Positions 9,105 through 36,067 of a stretch of 64,000 nucleotides of DNA are shown here, piece by piece. The notes under the pieces are model-generated. The model saw only the letters and a list, made by a program, of their open reading frames with translations, did no database searches and was not told the origin of the DNA. A program made the position numbers and the translations under genes. The stretch is from assembly GCA_049513975.1 (NCBI GenBank), contig JBEKVM010000004.1:46311-110310 (forward strand). Direction: 5' to 3'. This DNA comes from Verrucomicrobiota bacterium (GTDB lineage: Bacteria > Verrucomicrobiota > Verrucomicrobiia > Limisphaerales > Palsa-1400). The number at the start of each line of letters is the position of its first letter. The stretch's first letter is position 1.

Positions 9105-10436
9105 ATGAAAAAATTCTTCGCTTCGGTTGGTTTAGCCGCGCTTGGCGCGTCAACATTGCAGGCCCAATATGCCCCCGGCATCACGCCTGACCAAACAGCC
9201 AACCCGCGGGGCTGGTCGGTGGCCGCGGCGTTGCGCGGTTTTTATGACGACAACTACCTGACGCTGCCCAACGGGCTGGCGCGCTCCAGCTATGGCACGG
9301 AGGTGAGTCCATCGGCCACGTTCAACCACACTGTCAACAACACCACGATCACCCTCAGTTACGTATATGACTGGCGCTACTATGAAACGACCAGCACCTC
9401 GCAGTCGTCGCACCAATTCAACGGCGACGTAAAGCAGAACTTCTCCGAGCGCTTCAGCATGCGGGCCAGCGACTCCTTCGTCATCGCCCAGGAGCCGACG
9501 GTGATTGACACGGCGATCATTTCTTCCCCGTTGTACACCGAGGGGAACAATGTGCATAATACCGGCACGCTCTCTGCCACCGCCGGATTGACCCCCAAGC
9601 TGGATTTGCAGGCGAGCTACGCCAACAACCTTTACGCCTATGAGCAGACGTTCGGCGACGTTTACAATCCCAATCCGGCGGTAAATCCCCTGACGCCCAG
9701 CCGTTCGGCCATATTGGACCGGATGGAGCAACTGGCCACGCTGAATCTGAACTGGAAAATCCTGAGCGAACTGACCGGGGTTTTAGGCTATTCTTACGGG
9801 CATGTGGGTTACACCAGCCCGGAACCGATTATTTTCGCCGGGGCGCCACCCCAGACCTTTGGCAATCCGGCCAATGTATTAAGCAAGATCCGCGACAACG
9901 ATTCGCATTTCTTTTTTGTCGGGGCAGACGAGGCCTTTACGTCGCAATTGAACGGTTCCATCCGGGTGGGGGGCGAATATCTGGATTATTACAACGTGCA
10001 TTCGTCCGACACGTCGCCCTACGTGGACGCCAGCCTGACGTGGACGTACATGAAGGAATCTTACCTGCAGAGCGGGGTCATGCACCAACACAGCGCGACG
10101 GACGTGACGGGCGGAATCCCGCCCACCACGGGACCCAACGCGGGAAAGCCGGTCTTGGACGCGGAGACGACGGCGGCTTACCTGTCGGTGAACCAAAAGA
10201 TAGCCGGGGGATTCACCGGCGGCCTGCTGGGCCAGTTCCAGCACTCGGCGTTCAACGGAGGCACGGTGAACTCGGAATCGGAAGACTTCTTCATCGTGGG
10301 CATGAACTTTGCGTACCGTTTCACCCCGTATTTCGGAGCTGAAGCCGGATACAACTGGAACAAACTGGTGTCGGATGTTTCCGGCCGCGATTATACGCGC
10401 AACATGGTTTACCTCGGAGTCCGGGCCACATATTGA
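9105..10436 (+). CDS. Outer-membrane beta-barrel protein of polysaccharide-export loci (BBP2/EpsL-like)
   Basis: Signal peptide MKKFFASVGLAALGASTLQA; alternating beta-strand pattern; C-terminal YLGVRATY; lies just before wzc/wza. Confidence 0.72.
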   Translation: MKKFFASVGLAALGASTLQAQYAPGITPDQTANPRGWSVAAALRGFYDDNYLTLPNGLARSSYGTEVSPSATFNHTVNNTTITLSYVYDWRYYETTSTSQSSHQFNGDVKQNFSERFSMRASDSFVIAQEPTVIDTAIISSPLYTEGNNVHNTGTLSATAGLTPKLDLQASYANNLYAYEQTFGDVYNPNPAVNPLTPSRSAILDRMEQLATLNLNWKILSELTGVLGYSYGHVGYTSPEPIIFAGAPPQTFGNPANVLSKIRDNDSHFFFVGADEAFTSQLNGSIRVGGEYLDYYNVHSSDTSPYVDASLTWTYMKESYLQSGVMHQHSATDVTGGIPPTTGPNAGKPVLDAETTAAYLSVNQKIAGGFTGGLLGQFQHSAFNGGTVNSESEDFFIVGMNFAYRFTPYFGAEAGYNWNKLVSDVSGRDYTRNMVYLGVRATY

Positions 10437-10458
10437 ACATAAATTCGCGCTTTAGGTC

Positions 10459-10505
10459 AGAAAGCTAGAACGTAGCGAATGAGTACGCTCTAGCTTTCTT
10501 TTTTT
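10459..10505 (+). terminator. Intrinsic terminator-like hairpin immediately before wzc
   Basis: AGAAAGCTAGA (10459-10469) pairs with TCTAGCTTTCT (10489-10499), inner CGTA/TACG pairing, followed by a T run. Confidence 0.65.
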
Positions 10506-10508
10506 ATT

Positions 10509-12689
10509 ATGGATACCGCAGCAACAACAGACAGCCCGGTGGCGAGCCTCCATTTTTTGGACTACTGGCGGGTGATCCGGATGCGCAAGAGCCTGATTCT
10601 GACGGTTTTCCTGCTGTGCGTGATCACCAGTTCGATTCTGACCTATTGCCTGCCCAAGCAGTATTCCAGCACCGTCCGAATTGAGGTGCAGAAAGACGCG
10701 CCGGAGGTGAACATAATAGGGAACCAGGCCGGCCTGCAGAGCTGGGATCCTTACTACCTGACCACCCAGTTTCGCATCATCACCTCGTGGGGAATTCTGG
10801 ACACGGTGATCAGCAACCTGAATCTGCGGCATGTCTTTGCCGAGCAGGATCAGGCGGGGGAGGCGGACTGGACTCCGGACCAGGCTTACGGCTATTTGTA
10901 TAAGAGAGTCGGGGTTGACCAGACGCGCGGCACCAGCTTGATTGAAATTGCGGTCAGGAATTCCGACCCCAAATGGGCGGCGGACATCGCCAACAAAATT
11001 GCCGAGGTCTATAAGGAATACCGCAAGGCATCGTGGCTGGGCGACCGCAACCGGGGCATCGAAGGCCTGAGAGGGTCATTGATCACCAATCAGGCAGCGC
11101 TGCTCGTCAAGCAAACCAATTTGGACAACCTGCGCTCCAACTTGAACGTGACGGAGATGGAAAACAATCCCAACGCCCAGGCCTCCATTATTGTCGAAAC
11201 CATGCGGGCCCTGGAAAACCGCCGCATTGACGCGAGGTGGGATTACCAGGACCACTCCGACACCCAGAGCAATCTGTTGATCCTGCAGACCAACGGGCTT
11301 CTGCGTGAGGCGCTGGGGACGGCGATGTATCGCAACTTGGATCCCGAATTGGCCATCAAAGCCTCGGATCTCTCCCGCGCCAAGAATCAATTCACGGAGG
11401 CGCAGAACATGGGCTACGGCCCCGAACATCGCATGTATGTCACGGCGCTCAGGGATTTGGAGCAGGCCAGCAATGCCTATGAGGAAAAGATCAAAGGAAT
11501 CATGGTCGGTCTCGCCTCCCTGGTCAACCATGACCGGGGGCTGCTGGAATTGATCGAGAATGAAGAAAACCGCACGAAGGCGGATGCCATCCAGGAAGCC
11601 ATTTCCAACCGCGACTACGTCTCGGCCAAGCGCGATCTGGAAAACACCCAGCGGGTGGTGGATGATTTACACCGGCTCTTGATTGAACAAGAGGCGGAAG
11701 CCAAACAGCCGACCGAACGCTCCGTCGTCGTGCATGACCCGGCCCGGATGAACAAAAGCCCCGTCAGCCCCAAACCGTTCATCATCATACCGGTCGGAAT
11801 CGTCATGGGTCTGGTGGTCGGGCTGGGCATGGCCTTCTTCGTCGAATACCTGGATACCAGTGTCAAGACCATTGATGATGTGGAGCGTTCGCTGCAAGCG
11901 CCGGTGCTGGGAGTCATTCCCCAGAACGTGGGCAATGTGCTGGACGACGGGCCGGAAAGCCCGCACGCGGAGGCCTACCGGGTCTTGCGCACCAATCTTT
12001 TGTTCGGGCGCAAGAATGAAGACTGGACCACGATAACGGTGCTGAGCGGCGGGGCCGGGGAAGGCAAAACCACCACCCTGTTCAACCTGGCCACCGTCTT
12101 TGCCCAGAACGGCCAGCGCATTTTGATTGTGGATTCGGACTTGCGCCGCCCGAGCATTCACCGGATGCTGCGCGCCAGCAACACCACCGGGCTGACCGAT
12201 TTGCTCCTCAACAAACAGATCACCCTCGAACAAGTGATCCAGAAGACCAAGCTGCCCACCCTGGATTTTCTGCCCAGCGGCAAGCTGCCCAGCAGTTCCA
12301 TGAGCATTTTGGGTTCCGTGCAGATGAAAGAAATTGTCCGCGACCTCAAGCGCCGTTACGACTTTATCTTCTTCGATTCCCCACCGCTGCTGGGCGTGAG
12401 CGATGCCTCCATCCTGGCGAGCGAAATGGACATGGTGCTGCAAGTCATCCAGTACCGGCGTTACCCGCAGCCCATGACGTTGCGGGCCAAGCAGATGATC
12501 CAAAAAGTGGGCGGCAACCTTTTGGGCCTGGTGCTCAACAACATCAACATGAGCCAGGATGAGAATTATTACTATTACAGCGGTTACTACGAGTACGAAT
12601 ACCGGTCTTCCAGAAACGAGCCGACCGTGGTGCAACTCAGCGACGCCGCGGCCAAAGCGGCCAAAATAGACATCAAACAGAAGTATTGA
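10509..12689 (+). CDS. wzc: Polysaccharide co-polymerase / BY-kinase (Wzc/GumC-CapB)
   Basis: Two TMs flanking a coiled-coil periplasmic region, AEAYRVLRTNL, Walker A GAGEGKTT, DSDLRRP, DSPP, C-terminal Tyr cluster NYYYYSGYYEYEY. Confidence 0.95.
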   Translation: MDTAATTDSPVASLHFLDYWRVIRMRKSLILTVFLLCVITSSILTYCLPKQYSSTVRIEVQKDAPEVNIIGNQAGLQSWDPYYLTTQFRIITSWGILDTVISNLNLRHVFAEQDQAGEADWTPDQAYGYLYKRVGVDQTRGTSLIEIAVRNSDPKWAADIANKIAEVYKEYRKASWLGDRNRGIEGLRGSLITNQAALLVKQTNLDNLRSNLNVTEMENNPNAQASIIVETMRALENRRIDARWDYQDHSDTQSNLLILQTNGLLREALGTAMYRNLDPELAIKASDLSRAKNQFTEAQNMGYGPEHRMYVTALRDLEQASNAYEEKIKGIMVGLASLVNHDRGLLELIENEENRTKADAIQEAISNRDYVSAKRDLENTQRVVDDLHRLLIEQEAEAKQPTERSVVVHDPARMNKSPVSPKPFIIIPVGIVMGLVVGLGMAFFVEYLDTSVKTIDDVERSLQAPVLGVIPQNVGNVLDDGPESPHAEAYRVLRTNLLFGRKNEDWTTITVLSGGAGEGKTTTLFNLATVFAQNGQRILIVDSDLRRPSIHRMLRASNTTGLTDLLLNKQITLEQVIQKTKLPTLDFLPSGKLPSSSMSILGSVQMKEIVRDLKRRYDFIFFDSPPLLGVSDASILASEMDMVLQVIQYRRYPQPMTLRAKQMIQKVGGNLLGLVLNNINMSQDENYYYYSGYYEYEYRSSRNEPTVVQLSDAAAKAAKIDIKQKY

Positions 12690-13576: not shown

Positions 13577-13963
13577 ATGGTTCAACTTCAAATTCTGTCG
13601 GGGAAAAAAGCGGGCGGACAATTCACCGCCTCGCGCCTGCCCATGCAGATCGGCCGCGCGGCCGGGTCGGACCTGTGCCTGGAGGAGCCGGGAGTCTGGC
13701 CCCGGCACTTCCAGATCACGCGCCAGGGGCGGGATTTGGTTTGCCGGGCCGAACCCAATGCCCTGCTCTCCGTTAACGGCGTCCAAGTTGACCAGGCCGT
13801 CTTGCGCAACGGCGATGTCATTTCCATTGGCGCCCTGAAGATTCAATTTGCCTTGTCACCGGTCCGTCAATCCAGCCCGCGTGCGCGCGAATGGCTGACT
13901 TGGGCCGGGTTGGCGCTGCTCTGCCTCGGCCAGGCCGTCCTCATCTACCGCCTCATGCGGTGA
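13577..13963 (+). CDS. FHA-domain membrane protein
   Basis: [30 protein letters not shown] pattern plus C-terminal TM; canonical S in SxxH replaced by W. Confidence 0.8.
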
Positions 13964-30982: not shown

Positions 30983-31411
30983 ATGGCCGAATCGGTCTTT
31001 CGACACACGCACCGCGTGGTCTATGCGGAATGCACGGTGGGCAACCACGTTTATTACGCGCGCTACCTCGACATGCTGGAAGCGGCGCGCGGGGAATTCA
31101 TGCGCCAGCTCGGCTGCTCCGCGCGGCAATGGCAGGAGGCCGGCATCGCCTTTCCGGTCATCGGCGTGGAGATCGCCTACAAAGGGCCGGCGCGCTACGA
31201 CGACCTGCTCACCATCGAACTGTGGGTCACGGAAATGGGCGGCATCAGGATCAACGTCGGCTTCCGCATCCGCAACGCCAGCGGCGGATTGCTGGCCGAG
31301 GGCGTGACGCGCCACATCTGCGCGACGACGGATGAAAAGCCAAAACGCCTGCCCAAGGAGCTGATCGAAGCGCTGCGGCCGTTTTTGGGGCAAGCCGGTG
31401 TTGAAGCTTGA
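30983..31411 (+). CDS. Acyl-CoA thioesterase (YbgC/4HBT hotdog fold)
   Basis: RVVYAECTVGNHVYYARYLDMLEAARGE, YKGPARYDD. Confidence 0.88.
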   Translation: MAESVFRHTHRVVYAECTVGNHVYYARYLDMLEAARGEFMRQLGCSARQWQEAGIAFPVIGVEIAYKGPARYDDLLTIELWVTEMGGIRINVGFRIRNASGGLLAEGVTRHICATTDEKPKRLPKELIEALRPFLGQAGVEA

Positions 31412-31559
31412 TTCCATGAATTCATGGAAAGCTGCAATCTCAAAACAATCGCGCAGTTAACCTTTCCGTTCTGGGCGAGCACGCAGCGGCAGGGCGAGAC
31501 TGCGTCGAGACCTAACTCGATTTAATGTATCGGGCACATGACCCGACTCCACATTTTTC

Positions 31560-31588
31560 TTGACATATGAGGAGACTGAATTTATTCT
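31560..31588 (+). promoter_or_regulatory. Sigma-70 promoter with the -10 box inside a palindrome
   Basis: TTGACA, 17-bp spacer, TATTCT. Confidence 0.6.
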
Positions 31589-31625
31589 GCCCGCATTGCG
31601 GCTTTCAATGCGGGCAGAATAAATT
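31579..31625. repeat. Perfect 20-bp inverted repeat
   Basis: AATTTATTCTGCCCGCATTG / CAATGCGGGCAGAATAAATT with a 7-nt loop. Confidence 0.92.
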
Positions 31626-31689
31626 GTAGACCATTCAGATTAAAGCATTTTCAATATATTCACATTCGAGCATCTTCAATACAATTGCA

Positions 31690-31764
31690 GCCATGACGCC
31701 TTGCCATGACGCCTTGCCATGACGCCTTGCCATGACGCCTTGCCATGACGCCTTGCCATGACGC
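31690..31764. repeat. Tandem repeat (GCCATGACGCCTT) x5.8
   Basis: Five perfect 13-bp units plus a 10-bp partial unit, no spacers. Confidence 0.95.
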
Positions 31765-31945
31765 GATGAACTGGTTTGGCTTGTGTGGCCACAGTTTTGT
31801 TTAAACCGCCCTGGGGGAATACAGTCACGCCTCGACGGAGTCTCGCCCTTATAGTCCCTCCAAAGTTATTCATCGGCGGCTGTGGGGAGCCAACGGAACC
31901 ACTCCCCGCAGCCGATGGTGAATAACTTTGCGCCGCCAAAAAAAA

Positions 31946-33500
31946 TTGCCGTGAACAACTCAACTTTCACCCGCAGTATCCAGGTGAACACGCCTGGCCT
32001 GGAAGACGAATATCTCACCCTCAACGCGCGACGTTTTTCGGCAGAGTTTCGCTCCAGGCCAGGTGCCTTGATGCAAAGGAATTCTCAGAGCCCTTCGCCT
32101 GCCGGTCAAGCCGGCAGAGACGAACCATCTATAAGGCGTTCCATCCTTCAAGGCCCGCGTGTTCAACCTAACCAACCCATTAAACTAGGAATCAAAACAA
32201 GACTGCAACAAACTTCGCGGCCACCCTTGGCCTGGATTGGGCCCACAAAAAACACGATCTCTGGATTCAGCCCGCCGGCGGCGGCAAGCCCGAACACCGG
32301 GTGATCGAACAAACCGCCGCCGCCCTCCAGGAGTGGGTCGCGCAAATGCGCGCGCGTTTTCCCCAGGGGCGGATCGCCATCGCCATCGAAACCTCCCGCG
32401 GCGCGGTCATTTCCGCCCTGGCGGCTTACGATTTCATCGTCCTTTTCCCCGTCAACCCGGCCATGCTCTGCAGCTATCGAGAGGCCTTTTGCGTGAGCGG
32501 CGCCAAGGATGACCGGACCGAGGCCATGCTCCTGGAAGAGTATCTGCGCCTGCATTGGGCTAAACTTCGGCCTCTGGAACCGGACACCGAGCTGACGCGC
32601 AAACTGGGGGGACTGGTGGAAAACCGCCGAGGACTGGTGGATGAGCGCTCCCGTCTGGTCAATCAATTGCACAGCCTGGTAAAAACCTACTTTCCGCTGG
32701 TGGAAGCGCTCTTTGATGAGCTGACCACGCCACTGGCCGCGCACTTCCTGCTCCAGTGGCCCGATCTGGCCTCTGTCCAAAAAGCCGGACCGGCCTCCTT
32801 AAGGAAGTTCTTTTACGGCCACCATTGCCGCAGTGACAAAATCATGGAGGAACGTCTCCAAACCATCGCCCAAGCCCGGCCCTTGACCCAGGATGCGGCT
32901 CTGATCGAGCCGGCCGTGCTCAAAGCTCAGGCGCTGGCCGGGATGCTCCAAGTCCTGCACCAATCCATCGAGCAGATGGAAACTCTGATCGAGCAAACCA
33001 CCGACGCCCATCCCGACGCGGCCCTCTTCCGCAGCTTTCCGGCCGCCGGTCCTGCCCTGGCTCCGCGGCTGTTGGTGGCCTTTGGGACCAAGCGGGATCG
33101 TTTTGCCAGCGCCCAGGAAGTGCAGCAGTTCTATGGAATCGCACCGGTCAAGAAGCAAAGCGGCCAAAGCAAGGTCATTTCCATGCGCCACCGTTGCCCG
33201 AAATCTGGACGCCAAACTTTTCACGAAAACGCCGGCCACGCCGTCCGCCAGGAGGGCTGGGCCAAAAATGTTATGAGCAGCAGAGAGAACGAAAAAAAGG
33301 CCATCACGCCTCCGTGCGCGCGGTGGCCTTCAAACTGATGCGCATCTATTTCCGCTGCTGGAAAGACAGGAAATGCTATGACGCCGGCCTCTACGAAAAA
33401 GCCTTGGAAAAACACGGCAGCCCGCTCTCGGACCTGATGAAAAAGGCGGCGCTGGCGAAAGGCAAATAATTTTCAAAAAATATGTTGCCGGAACAACTCA
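31946..33500 (+). mobile_element. IS110-family element (boundaries approximate)
   Basis: Transposase preceded by about 240 bp of non-coding DNA; TTGCCG(T)GAACAACTCA occurs at both 31946-31962 and 33485-33500. Confidence 0.7.
32187..33469 (+). pseudogene. IS110 transposase (DEDD recombinase), probably inactivated
   Basis: GLDWAHKKHD, IAIETS, AKDDRTEA, GIAPVKKQSG; expected start reads AGG (32187) after an in-frame TAA; frameshift at A5 33264-33268 continues into ..RAVAFKLMRIYFRCWKD. Confidence 0.85.
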
Positions 33501-33583
33501 GAACTCTACCGTCACTGATTCGTTGCGGGAAGGAGCATTTTTCCATCACTCCACCACTCCATCACTCCGTTTCTCCGCCGCCC

Positions 33584-33775
33584 CGCGGGTCCCAGGCGTC
33601 GCGCAGGGCGTCGCCGGCGAAATTGAGGACGAGCCGGGTCAAAGGGGCGACCGTGGCTGTTGCAGGGGCAAAGCGGAACTGGCGTTCCGCACTCCAAGAC
33701 GCTTCGCGTTCAGGGTGCGCGTCCGAGTTGCCGACAGGTCTTGGAGTGCGGGCGCGAGAGCGCCGCTTTTCCGCT
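33584..33775. repeat. Direct repeat A: oppC 3'-end copy plus GGAGTGCGG REP
   Basis: About 190-bp unit repeated at 34774-34960; first 58 bp match the oppC tail. Confidence 0.85.
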
Positions 33776-33824
33776 CGCGCCCTACCAACCAGGACTAGGG
33801 CGAAACAGACTTATCGAGGATGGA

Positions 33825-34586
33825 TCAGGGAAAAACCAGGCGGATGGAGAGGGAGGCCGGAACGTGGCCGGCGGGCCAGTTGGTGGTTGGGTCGGCGTGA
33901 CTCAGCCAATTCGTGCGGAAACTGGCGCTGGATACTTGTTCAACACTGCCGTCACCGAGCAAAATACTTCCAGCGCCCGCAGTGTTTCCGGCTGAATGCA
34001 TCTTCGATGACCATGAGACGGGCTTGAATAATGAATTGGTCTGGATTGCCACGTCGTTCCCCTTTCCGCTTTCAGGTGAGAAACCGTAATAGCGGTAAGC
34101 CTCCCCGCCGTTGCCTAAATTGCGATCACCACCTTGGATTGACTGAGGATAGTTGTCGTTAGCGCTCACCCCCACAAAGTAAGAGAGGTGAGTGTTATCC
34201 TTGAAATCCGTGGTGAAGTTTGTTGCTGGCTCCCGTTCATCGGCCGGGCACACAACCAGTCTCGGAGATTGGCCCAACTCGTTGCTCACGATCGCGAAGT
34301 TGGTCCAGCAGATGGCACCCTGATCAGCATTGGTGAGAAAATCTCCCCATCCGCCTTTGGCCGCCGTCTGCTCGGCGGGGTTGCGACCGCCGTGATCCGC
34401 AGCCCAGACGCGATAACCCACGCCGATTACCTTGAGAACGTTACCGCAACTGATGCGGCTGCGTTGCTTCGTGTGCTGGAACCTCGGCAAAATCATTGAA
34501 GCCAGCACCACTGCTACGACCACAATCACGACGACCAATTCAATGCGAGTGAATGCGGACATATCGCGCATCGCTTTTTGTTTCAT
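33825..34586 (-). CDS. Prepilin-type N-terminal cleavage/methylation protein (pilin/pseudopilin-like)
   Basis: A|FTRIELVVVIVVVAVV with Glu at +5, CGNVLKVIGVG..WAADH, C-terminal GSILLGDGSV. Confidence 0.88.
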   Translation of the reverse strand: MKQKAMRDMSAFTRIELVVVIVVVAVVLASMILPRFQHTKQRSRISCGNVLKVIGVGYRVWAADHGGRNPAEQTAAKGGWGDFLTNADQGAICWTNFAIVSNELGQSPRLVVCPADEREPATNFTTDFKDNTHLSYFVGVSANDNYPQSIQGGDRNLGNGGEAYRYYGFSPESGKGNDVAIQTNSLFKPVSWSSKMHSAGNTAGAGSILLGDGSVEQVSSASFRTNWLSHADPTTNWPAGHVPASLSIRLVFP

Positions 34587-34672
34587 ACTGCCTCCAGGAG
34601 AAAGTCAAACACATTTCGCGGCGGAAAGCAATGGCAGAATGGAATTCTTTGAAAGGAACAGGAAGGAAATGG

Positions 34673-34740
34673 CCGCGAAGAGGCGCAAAAGGCGCAAAAA
34701 TGAATTCCGGTTTTGTGACTTTTGCGCTTTTTCGCGGCTA
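34673..34740. repeat. REP-like inverted pair, GCGCAAAAGGCGCAAAA family
   Basis: CCGCGAAGAGGCGCAAAAGGCGCAAAA ... TTTTGTGACTTTTGCGCTTTTTCGCGG. Confidence 0.65.
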
Positions 34741-34760
34741 TTCGGTTTTCTCCGTTTCCC

Positions 34761-34960
34761 TCAATCCTCCGTGCGCGGGTCCCAGGCGTCGGGCAGGGCG
34801 TCGCCGGCGAAATTGAGGGCGAGCAGGGTCAATGGGGCGACCATGGCTGCTGCAGGGGCAAAGCGGAACTGGCGTTCCGCACTCCAAGACGCTTCGCGTT
34901 GAGGGGCGCGGAGGAGGTGCCGACGGGTCTTGGAGTGCGGGCGCGAAAGGGCCGCTTTCC
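34761..34960. repeat. Direct repeat B: oppC 3'-end copy (71 bp incl. stop) plus REP
   Basis: 34761-34831 matches 35078-35148 at 68/71 positions. Confidence 0.9.
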
Positions 34961-35077
34961 CGCTCAAATAACAAATACGCAATGGCAAATTCCCGATTCC
35001 CGCCCTGGAGTACTACCTCACGGGTTTTCAGAATTGAAAATTGGCGATTGAAAATCGGTCATTGGTAATTGACTGCC

Positions 35078-36067
35078 TCAATCCTCCGAGCGCGGGTCCC
35101 AGGCGTCGCGCAGGGCGTCGCCGACGAAATTGAGGGCGAGCAGGGTCAGGGCCAGCATCGCGCCGGGAAAAACAATGAGCCACCAGTAAATGCGGATGGA
35201 GTTGATCTGCTCGCTGCCGCTGGCAATGAGGGAACCCAAACTGGCCTGGGGCGGCTGGATGCCCAGCCCCAGCCAGCTCAGAAAGGATTCGTATAATATG
35301 ATGGAAGGAATGGTCATTGTCAAATATACGATTATCACGCCATAGACGTTGGGCAGGATGTGGCGGCGTAGAATCCGCCAGTGTCCCGCCCCCAGGACGC
35401 GGCTGGCGTCCACAAAGGCGCGGTGGCGCAGGGACAGGACCTGGCCGCGGACGATGCGGGCCATGGGCAGCCAGGAGACCGCGCCCAGGCCGCCAAACAG
35501 GGCGGTGAATTGCAGCCATTGCACCGCGCCGTCGGAAAGGCGCTCCGGCCCGTTCTGCCATTTTCCCAGCAGGGCGTTGAGGGTGGTGATGAGGACAATG
35601 ACAAATATGATTGACGGCATGGAGTAGAGCACATCCACGCAACGCATCATCACCGCGTCCCAGCGTCCGCCGCAGTAGCCGGCGACGGCGCCCCACAAAA
35701 CGCCGATGATCAGGCTGACCGCCGTTCCCACCAGCCCGACCAGCAGGGAAAGGCGCGCGCCGCCGCAAACCCGGCTCAACAAATCGCGCCCGTGAACGTC
35801 GGTCCCCAACCAGTATTGCCCGCCGGGCGGCTGGAATTGAGCGTCGGAAACGGCGTTGGGGGCGTGGGTCATGGCTGGCGGCAGATGCGGCGCGAGGCCG
35901 GGCCGGCTGAAGAGCGGCCACACCAGAATCAACGCCACGATCAAGGCCAGAAGAAAAGTGGAGGCCATCGCCACCCGGTTGCGCCGAAAACGCCGCCAGG
36001 CCCGCTGATTGGGGCTGAGGGGCATGGCCGGTGGCGCCGCGGTGGCGGATGGGGAATTGCTATTCAT
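35078..36067 (-). CDS. oppC: Oligopeptide ABC transporter permease OppC
   Basis: AWRRFRRNR, LGTDVHGRDLLSR, ARIVRGQVL, RHILPN, ESFLSWLGLG, LNFVGDALRDAWDP. Confidence 0.95.
   Translation of the reverse strand: MNSNSPSATAAPPAMPLSPNQRAWRRFRRNRVAMASTFLLALIVALILVWPLFSRPGLAPHLPPAMTHAPNAVSDAQFQPPGGQYWLGTDVHGRDLLSRVCGGARLSLLVGLVGTAVSLIIGVLWGAVAGYCGGRWDAVMMRCVDVLYSMPSIIFVIVLITTLNALLGKWQNGPERLSDGAVQWLQFTALFGGLGAVSWLPMARIVRGQVLSLRHRAFVDASRVLGAGHWRILRRHILPNVYGVIIVYLTMTIPSIILYESFLSWLGLGIQPPQASLGSLIASGSEQINSIRIYWWLIVFPGAMLALTLLALNFVGDALRDAWDPRSED

Follow-up and report, generated by a model that had tools for sequence, protein, structure and literature searches.

The pilE and pilS loci of Neisseria are responsible for pilin antigenic variation. 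In the his region of Salmonella, Shyamala, Schneider and Ames (1990) are said to have described tandem duplications whose join points lie at repetitive extragenic palindromic (REP) sequences. Dedicated elements are also associated with gene ends or REPs, among them integrative elements that enter the 3' ends of tRNA, tmRNA or protein-coding genes, bring a replacement end with them and so give att duplications and tandem arrays, the REPIN/RAYT systems, in which REP doublets are associated with a REP-associated tyrosine transposase (RAYT; Bertels and Rainey 2011, PMC3116915; PMC3337134), and insertion sequences (ISs) of the IS110 family, which target REPs and use a bridge or seek RNA (PMC1525189, PMC11208160, PMC11187229). 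Here, these systems are compared with the 3' end of oppC, an oligopeptide ABC permease gene, in a 64,000-nucleotide stretch of DNA (the window), which corresponds to C4:46311-110310 of the 6.05-Mb, 233-contig genome G000 (positions preceded by a contig name refer to that contig, all others to the window). The nearest genomes are Verrucomicrobiota metagenome-assembled genomes from SPRUCE peat and Danish soils. The host looks like an uncultured peat Verrucomicrobium and its oppC locus like a rearrangement-prone spot, at which several copies of the gene end are fused to REPs; the locus as a whole looks like a new example of an already known kind of event rather than the trace left by a novel integration machinery.

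The oppC gene itself is intact (35078-36067, minus strand); it matches the Pfam families BPD_transp_1 and OppC_N and the NCBIfam models Opp4C/OppC, and its same-genus orthologues in genomes G004, G001 and G002 are 93%, 90% and 83% identical respectively. As the original prediction stated, its last 71 bp (tail1, 35078-35148, minus strand, oppC ending at 35078) recur, stop codon included, at 34761-34831 (tail2, minus strand), with 68/71 positions identical (95.8%, E 8e-27 in a BLAST search of the 6-Mb genome); a repeat search aligned 34759-34831 with 35076-35148 at 96% over 73 nt. The further copy that it placed at 33584-33641 (tail3, minus strand) is identical at 55/58 positions (94.8%, E 9e-20 by BLAST against the whole genome), and its stop-proximal part is altered by a small deletion. 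Each tail copy runs directly into a ~135-bp palindromic repeat with CCGCACTCCAAGAC / GTCTTGGAGTGCGG arms (REP3, 33642-33776; REP2, 34832-34965), and the resulting tail-plus-REP units (units 3 and 2 respectively) are direct repeats, 91.7% identical over 193 nt, that bracket a pilin-like gene, in agreement with the ~190 bp first proposed. A fourth unit lies outside the window, 65 kb away and beside the gap gene (C4:13666-13866, 92% identical to unit 2), and consists of tail4 (13666-13732) fused to a REP doublet (13735-13866) and followed by the same pilin-like gene, here with an internal deletion of ~430 bp. Identity between pairs of units is uniform (91.7-92.7% by BLAST), as would fit a burst of copying. 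The oppC tail is not a genome-wide repeat, and BLAST found these three copies only, besides oppC itself.

The breakpoint between tail and REP is the same in units 2, 3 and 4, GGGTCA|A(T/A)GGGGCGACC, and cuts through both partners. On one side it lies 71 bp inside oppC; on the other it lies ~22 nt inside a repeat consensus, the leading ~22 nt of which are gone. In 20 other copies, the repeat that hosts the doublet continues for ~22 nt more on the left (consensus GGGTGTGAGACAAAATTCTTCAAAT) and for more than 60 nt on the right. REP2 thus represents the inside of a longer repeat (250 nt or more) that has lost both of its ends (from BLAST, alignments and folding), and REP3 has the same left breakpoint, its right side running on into the pilin 3' flank (from the repeat search, BLAST and alignments). 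Microhomology at the joint is limited to CA/TCA. Tails 2, 3 and 4 also have in common a G in GCCGGCGAAATT, where the functional oppC has A (G000, G004 and G001) or T (G002), and which corresponds to a Val-to-Ala substitution. Because one joint and one shared derived change are found in all three pseudo-tails, they have a single origin, followed by copying.

A second joint, between REP2 and the spacer beside oppC, also truncates both of its partners. The REP element lacks its right part and the spacer (34966-35077), a member of a small repeat family of ~11 copies (11 BLAST hits and a family alignment), lacks ~22 nt of its left end, whilst the orthologous spacer in G004 is complete; from this comparison, the REP2|spacer joint is a deletion scar. 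Since the partners are cut through in each case, the tail|REP and REP2|spacer joints are illegitimate or deletion joints and not the ends of insertions.

Comparison of empty and filled oppC loci in relatives, which the original prediction had called for, places the rearrangement in a single lineage. In G002 the order is rsmD-gap-(200 bp)-oppC and in G004 it is rsmD-gap-M-short REP-pilin (split by an IS)-spacer-oppC, M being a short repeat motif described below, and neither locus has a tail copy. In G001 (C117, 7300-8800), oppC is succeeded immediately by a pair of tRNA genes and a gene for a Ser/Thr kinase-like protein, and synteny breaks off at the oppC stop codon. These three arrangements argue that the gap|oppC neighbourhood is ancestral and that the oppC 3' flank is a rearrangement hot spot; in G000, ~67 kb now separate gap from oppC. 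In a search with the 71-bp tail, extra high-identity copies were found in G000 only among 31 family genomes, the 30 others having none, and the tail|REP joint pattern was absent from 185,579 species genomes. The two findings that had been named in advance as fatal to a locus-specific event, a tail scattered over the genome and the same fixed arrangement in all relatives, were therefore not encountered. At 99% identity, three metagenome contigs drawn from other assemblies align with the two loci from end to end and span the junctions between block and array (see below) on both sides; because these independent contigs carry the arrangement at both loci, an assembly artefact was ruled out.

The sequences next to the tails retain traces of their history. 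Past the stop codon of tail2 lies a short flank (34745-34760, containing ctccgtttc; gaaacggag in gene orientation) that tails 2 and 3 share; at tail3 it passes into the M motif and is similar to the terminus that oppC natively has in G001. Since the same flank follows tail3, the stretch at 34745-34760 is probably a remnant of an older oppC downstream flank. The spacer adjoins tail1 in G000 and oppC in G004, and tail4 has a G004-like terminus, its homology stopping 1-2 nt from the stop codon, beyond which the sequence is unrelated. In the metagenome strain contig, tail3 becomes tail4-like and tail2 becomes tail1-like, changes that would be compatible with gene conversion among the copies.

The evidence leans, if modestly, towards a tandem-duplication joint that was amplified by homologous recombination and then remodelled. 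The ancestral order, in gene orientation, would have been oppC body, tail, flank, pilin-like gene and REP. An illegitimate joint between a point 71 bp before the oppC end and an internal point of the REP-bearing repeat downstream of the pilin-like neighbour would have duplicated the segment from oppC tail through flank and pilin-like gene to REP head-to-tail, creating a novel REP|tail junction. The units may then have multiplied by homologous recombination, either through unequal crossing-over or through loop-out and re-insertion of unit circles, with at least three identical REP|tail joints as the outcome. Remodelling would have included a deletion that joined REP2 to the truncated spacer and removed the proximal pilin copy, insertion of a palindromic repeat upstream of the middle pilin copy, loss of ~430 bp from the distal pilin copy, the arrival of 63 kb of native housekeeping genes in the interval that separates units 3 and 4, and insertion of an IS110 element into an adjacent REP that belongs to another family. 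None of this would call for a dedicated integrase. A duplication junction is favoured because the joint cuts both a gene and a repeat, is common to all copies and has minimal homology, and the extra oppC ends would then, with somewhat better than even probability, be non-functional fragments derived from one illegitimate joint.

The likeness to the Salmonella his duplications is that a REP-bearing intergenic repeat provides one join partner and that the duplicated unit serves as a substrate for homologous recombination. The locus differs in that the second partner lies in coding sequence, 71 bp short of the oppC end, the microhomology is only 2-3 nt, and the copies are old (~8% diverged) and heavily remodelled. 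If this explanation is true, the locus is a well-preserved natural case of one illegitimate joint beside a REP seeding a small duplicated array, which then became a landing zone for more rearrangement, including the 63-kb relocation, in a repeat-rich member of the Verrucomicrobia. It would also be a caution that gene-end copies and palindromes together can mimic attachment (att) sites.

The head-to-tail content of the units gives a mixed picture: units 3 and 4 share the tail, REP, pilin-like gene and its upstream region, but unit 2 is without the pilin-like gene because of a deletion joint, the flanks of the tails differ and the array is interrupted by the 63-kb block. Several features weigh against a tandem duplication. 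Had a G004-like locus simply been duplicated, the spacer should lie beside every tail, whereas tails 2 and 3 have an M-like flank and tail4 has unrelated sequence; to account for this mismatch, either the spacer would have been inserted only after the duplication, with a secondary collapse in G004 or an independent insertion of its spacer, or there would have been extra deletions. For a random deletion, it is an odd coincidence that tail4 homology ends 1-2 nt from the stop codon. Simple unequal crossing-over does not predict the layout of direct repeat, inverted M-x-REPg pair, block, inverted M-x-REPg pair and direct repeat (REPg being a second REP family), and the inversion or template-switch models that might account for it are guesses. 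Tandem duplications usually collapse fast, yet the copies here are ~8% diverged, and no intermediate arrangement was found in the genomes searched.

The 63-kb block (C4:14470-77800, that is, window 1-31490 and the sequence upstream) lies between unit 4 and tail3 and bears on both this explanation and its alternatives. It encodes mutM, asd, purH, a cysteine desulfurase-like protein, ExbD-like proteins, a helicase and a thioesterase, is present in single copy and has a GC content of 0.615, compared with 0.600 for the genome. The orthologues of helicase, purH and mutM in G004, the closest relative, are located at 320.6, 336.8 and 386.4 kb of another contig, with the same spacing and order, and the neighbours of the block there are xerC/vapBC on one side and a methyltransferase/EVE/trpF cluster on the other. 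The block is therefore a relocated native segment and not a mobile element, given its single copy, native GC content and collinearity in G004. A foreign origin was ruled out by these same features together with its housekeeping genes. The empty donor site was not found in G000, where contig C70 breaks off at xerC and the assembly contains neither the methyltransferase nor the EVE gene.

The two edges of the block mirror each other. The M motif (CCATCACTCCACCACTCC..., 63 copies genome-wide) is present in inverted copies at 33540-33578 and C4:14328-14391. An M motif followed by a REPg arm within 200 nt was found at 1/63 M sites, the one at the left block edge; with the IS110 element taken out, an identical pair appears at the right edge in inverted orientation. 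REPg forms inverted arms (31491-31522 / 31818-31849) around a 13-bp tandem array, and this segment as a whole (31491-31849, from the repeat search) constitutes the right block edge and the IS110 target. The direct tail-REP-pilin copies lie outside the inverted M-x-REPg pairs.

The original prediction had seen in the pattern the signature of repeated integration at the oppC end (attL/attR). In such a scenario, circles carrying an attP site (a REP and an oppC-tail-like stretch) would enter the 3' end, restore the gene and push the older tail outward, by means of a recombinase that acted in trans or has since been lost. The oppC end has indeed been serially copied, and the locus is like integrative elements at gene 3' ends in three respects: the gene is intact, partial 3'-end copies lie outward and the corresponding sites in relatives are empty. 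In addition, the tails further out have different, older-looking termini (G004-like in tail4, G001-like in tail3), tail4 adjoins gap, the ancestral neighbour of oppC in G002 and G004, and loses its homology right at the stop codon; the G that marks all three tails could come from attP. An att-type mechanism, however, did not hold up, given the one shared internal breakpoint and the native cargo, which comprises two copies of one pilin gene, a truncated repeat of 112 nt and the 63-kb collinear housekeeping block. Moreover, the tail|REP joint is lineage-unique, being absent from all other species genomes, the tail is not duplicated in any of the other family genomes, and the REP2|spacer joint is a deletion scar. 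The claim that no integrase is present stands in part: a profile search found no Phage_integrase (PF00589) match, and so no tyrosine recombinase, in the ~70 kb of C4:13-82 kb, serine recombinases not having been searched by profile, but a recombinase gene does lie adjacent, in the IS110 element (31848-33508), and is otherwise explained (see below). Serial site-specific integration is thus unlikely, although the outward layering of older-looking termini and the M-x-REPg layout preserve a low probability for integration of this type. A related possibility is that the oppC tail, flank, cargo and REP together form a circle-forming cassette that re-enters the oppC 3' end by means of a recombinase acting in trans (a RAYT or other host enzyme), with REP|tail as the attachment site. 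Only if this were true would the locus represent a new mechanism, a REP-based platform for integration at gene ends that works without an integrase and accepts even large chromosomal segments, and the probability of this appears slight.

The palindromic segments themselves belong to a REP family. The doublet is one of a family with ~40 further members in the genome (by BLAST, 42 hits at E<=1e-8; 37 matches to a 16-nt core), and its two inverted REP units fold into a long, REPIN-like hairpin (-35.5 kcal/mol, z -2.5). Consistent with the recommendation to search the genome for a RAYT, a RAYT-like open reading frame is present outside the window at C9:69650-70290, with the HUH motif NHYHF and YVHQNP, and has on either side an inverted REP of the type GGAGTGCGG-hairpin-GCTTTCC, as in the doublet. 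Because this reading frame is flanked by the same REP type, the ~135-bp segment is a bona fide REP doublet, in agreement with the REP pair first described, and the C9 gene is a candidate for the cognate transposase of this REP family.

Mobilisation by a RAYT, in which the doublet would have moved together with a transduced 71-bp oppC flank, is suggested by these same features, two inverted REP hairpins in many copies and a RAYT-like gene with REPs of that type on both sides, and by the occurrence of doublets within several different composite repeats. What distinguishes the locus from REPIN/RAYT systems is the embedding of the doublet in larger composite repeats and the position of the tail joint, which lies ~33 nt outside the first REP hairpin, within the longer repeat, and not at a REP cleavage-type boundary or an element end. 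The tail is carried only by the clustered copies at this locus, units 3 and 4 were co-duplicated with ~1 kb of the pilin gene, and at its stop-codon end the unit is not closed off by another REP. The proposal of RAYT-mediated capture was thus contradicted by the breakpoint ~22 nt inside the longer repeat, and it is quite improbable that a RAYT moved the units. Other gene-tail-plus-REP units, a search for which had also been recommended, were sought in the flanks of all REP doublets and none was found; the flanks consist of other intergenic repeats. In an AT-rich intergenic repeat of ~250 nt (C139:14210-14473, C160:11000-11263, C217:4706-4969, C1:13447-13560, C122:1239-1354), three copies have a REP doublet at the end, and two the M motif at the same place. 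Judging from such arrangements of their parts, the intergenic repeats of G000 are modular mosaics.

The gene between units 2 and 3 (33825-34586, minus strand) encodes 253 residues and starts with a prepilin-type N-terminus, SAFTRIELVVVIVVV, that resembles the prepilin methylation motif. Its assignment as pilin-like, while in line with what had been proposed, depends on weak profile matches (N_methyl E 0.15; ComGC/GspG N-termini E 0.002-0.005). The pilin gene and its flanks are common to units 3 and 4, with ~90% identity, which argues that they arose by copying and do not carry different cargo. The gene belongs to a paralogue family, whose members in tandem arrays on contigs C63 and C59 have no tail-REP brackets (by BLAST). 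Between 99%-identical strains, 25 substitutions cluster at 33891-34075, in the 3' part of the gene, against a background of ~0.5%, and part of the strain allele is closer to the distal copy in unit 4; this suggests gene conversion or diversifying selection.

These observations bear on the idea that the locus is a recombinable pilin cassette, with the tail-REP repeats acting as homology arms through which pilin-like copies are swapped or converted for surface variation. As at Neisseria pilE/pilS, there are several pilin-like copies, flanking repeats and a mosaic-looking 3' region that varies between strains, and the two local copies are bracketed by direct repeats of ~200 bp. There are only two such copies, however, and one of them has an internal deletion, not the 5' truncation of a silent cassette; an array of cassettes that lack a promoter and their 5' ends is missing, and neither a known recombination-initiating motif nor a conserved recombination signal or G-quadruplex (G4)-type motif was seen at the locus. 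With the C63 and C59 paralogues lacking tail-REP brackets and the pilin identity weak, resting on an N-terminal match, a role in surface variation is distinctly improbable. The orthologue in G004 (C18, ~9313-10757) is split by an unrelated IS, with a AAGTTTATTCA duplication at its flanks.

The remaining recombinase of the locus belongs to the IS110-family element (31848-33508, plus strand), identified by the Pfam domains DEDD_Tnp_IS110 and Transposase_20 and the NCBIfam model transpos_IS110. Alignment with related elements places its ends at 31848 and 33508, with CT at each; it has no long terminal repeats, a sequence-specific target and a short core. The transposase is frameshifted in this assembly and intact, at 389 aa, in a 99%-identical metagenome contig (L022). 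Rejoining the flanks gives GGAGTCTCGCC-CT-ACCG, an ordinary REPg-family end that is present 37 times uninterrupted, and each end of the element is found once in the genome, with no extra copies. The corresponding site at the other block edge is empty of IS110. The element is a simple, independent insertion into a REP family other than that of the doublet, and in this it acts as IS110 elements usually do at REPs (PMC1525189, PMC11208160).

The original prediction had offered IS110-mediated capture as an alternative to RAYT. In such a scenario, the adjacent recombinase would have mobilised tail-REP-pilin modules in the way that ISPpu9 mobilises the ssr9 module, with formation of modular circles (PMC12288879). 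The element is 75 bp from tail3, shares DEDD and Transposase_20 domains and a CT core with REP-targeting IS110 elements and likewise sits in a REP, and members of the family can form several kinds of circles (PMC12288879, PMC1525189). Unlike ISPpu9-type elements, it is single-copy and occupies a different REP family from the doublet, and the tail-REP units are surrounded by no module boundaries, repeated end boxes or further copies of the IS ends. Its CT-flanked ends, the uninterrupted REPg ends elsewhere and the empty matching site likewise point away from capture, which is scarcely credible and was rejected on the grounds of a single clean insertion with each IS end once in the genome. Features that define integrative elements, RAYT-mobilised REPs and IS110 cargo were each looked for and not found here, so the locus is not a demonstrable member of any of these systems and rather tends to behave as a remodelled tandem duplication beside a REP. 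A conserved hairpin of ~85 nt at the left end of the element (31859-31943) recurs at many contig ends in G012, G002 and G008, indicating that this IS110 family is widespread in related genomes.

Read along the window, the features occur in the order thioesterase gene (ending at 31411), REPg-bracketed 13-bp array, IS110, M, tail3, REP3, pilin-like gene, palindrome, tail2, REP2, spacer, oppC and oppB. The palindrome (34662-34744, arms 34668-34699 / 34711-34742) belongs to a separate small repeat family of ~15 copies with BLAST matches on many contigs. An Rfam scan of 31000-35300 gave chance miRNA-like matches on the palindrome and nothing else, and a scan for promoters and terminators gave no signal above that of shuffled sequences. 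The 13-bp tandem array (GCCATGACGCCTT, 31677-31777) differs in copy number between G000 and the 99%-identical strain contig, and 39/117 of the strain differences over 12 kb fall in the 250-nt bin that contains it.

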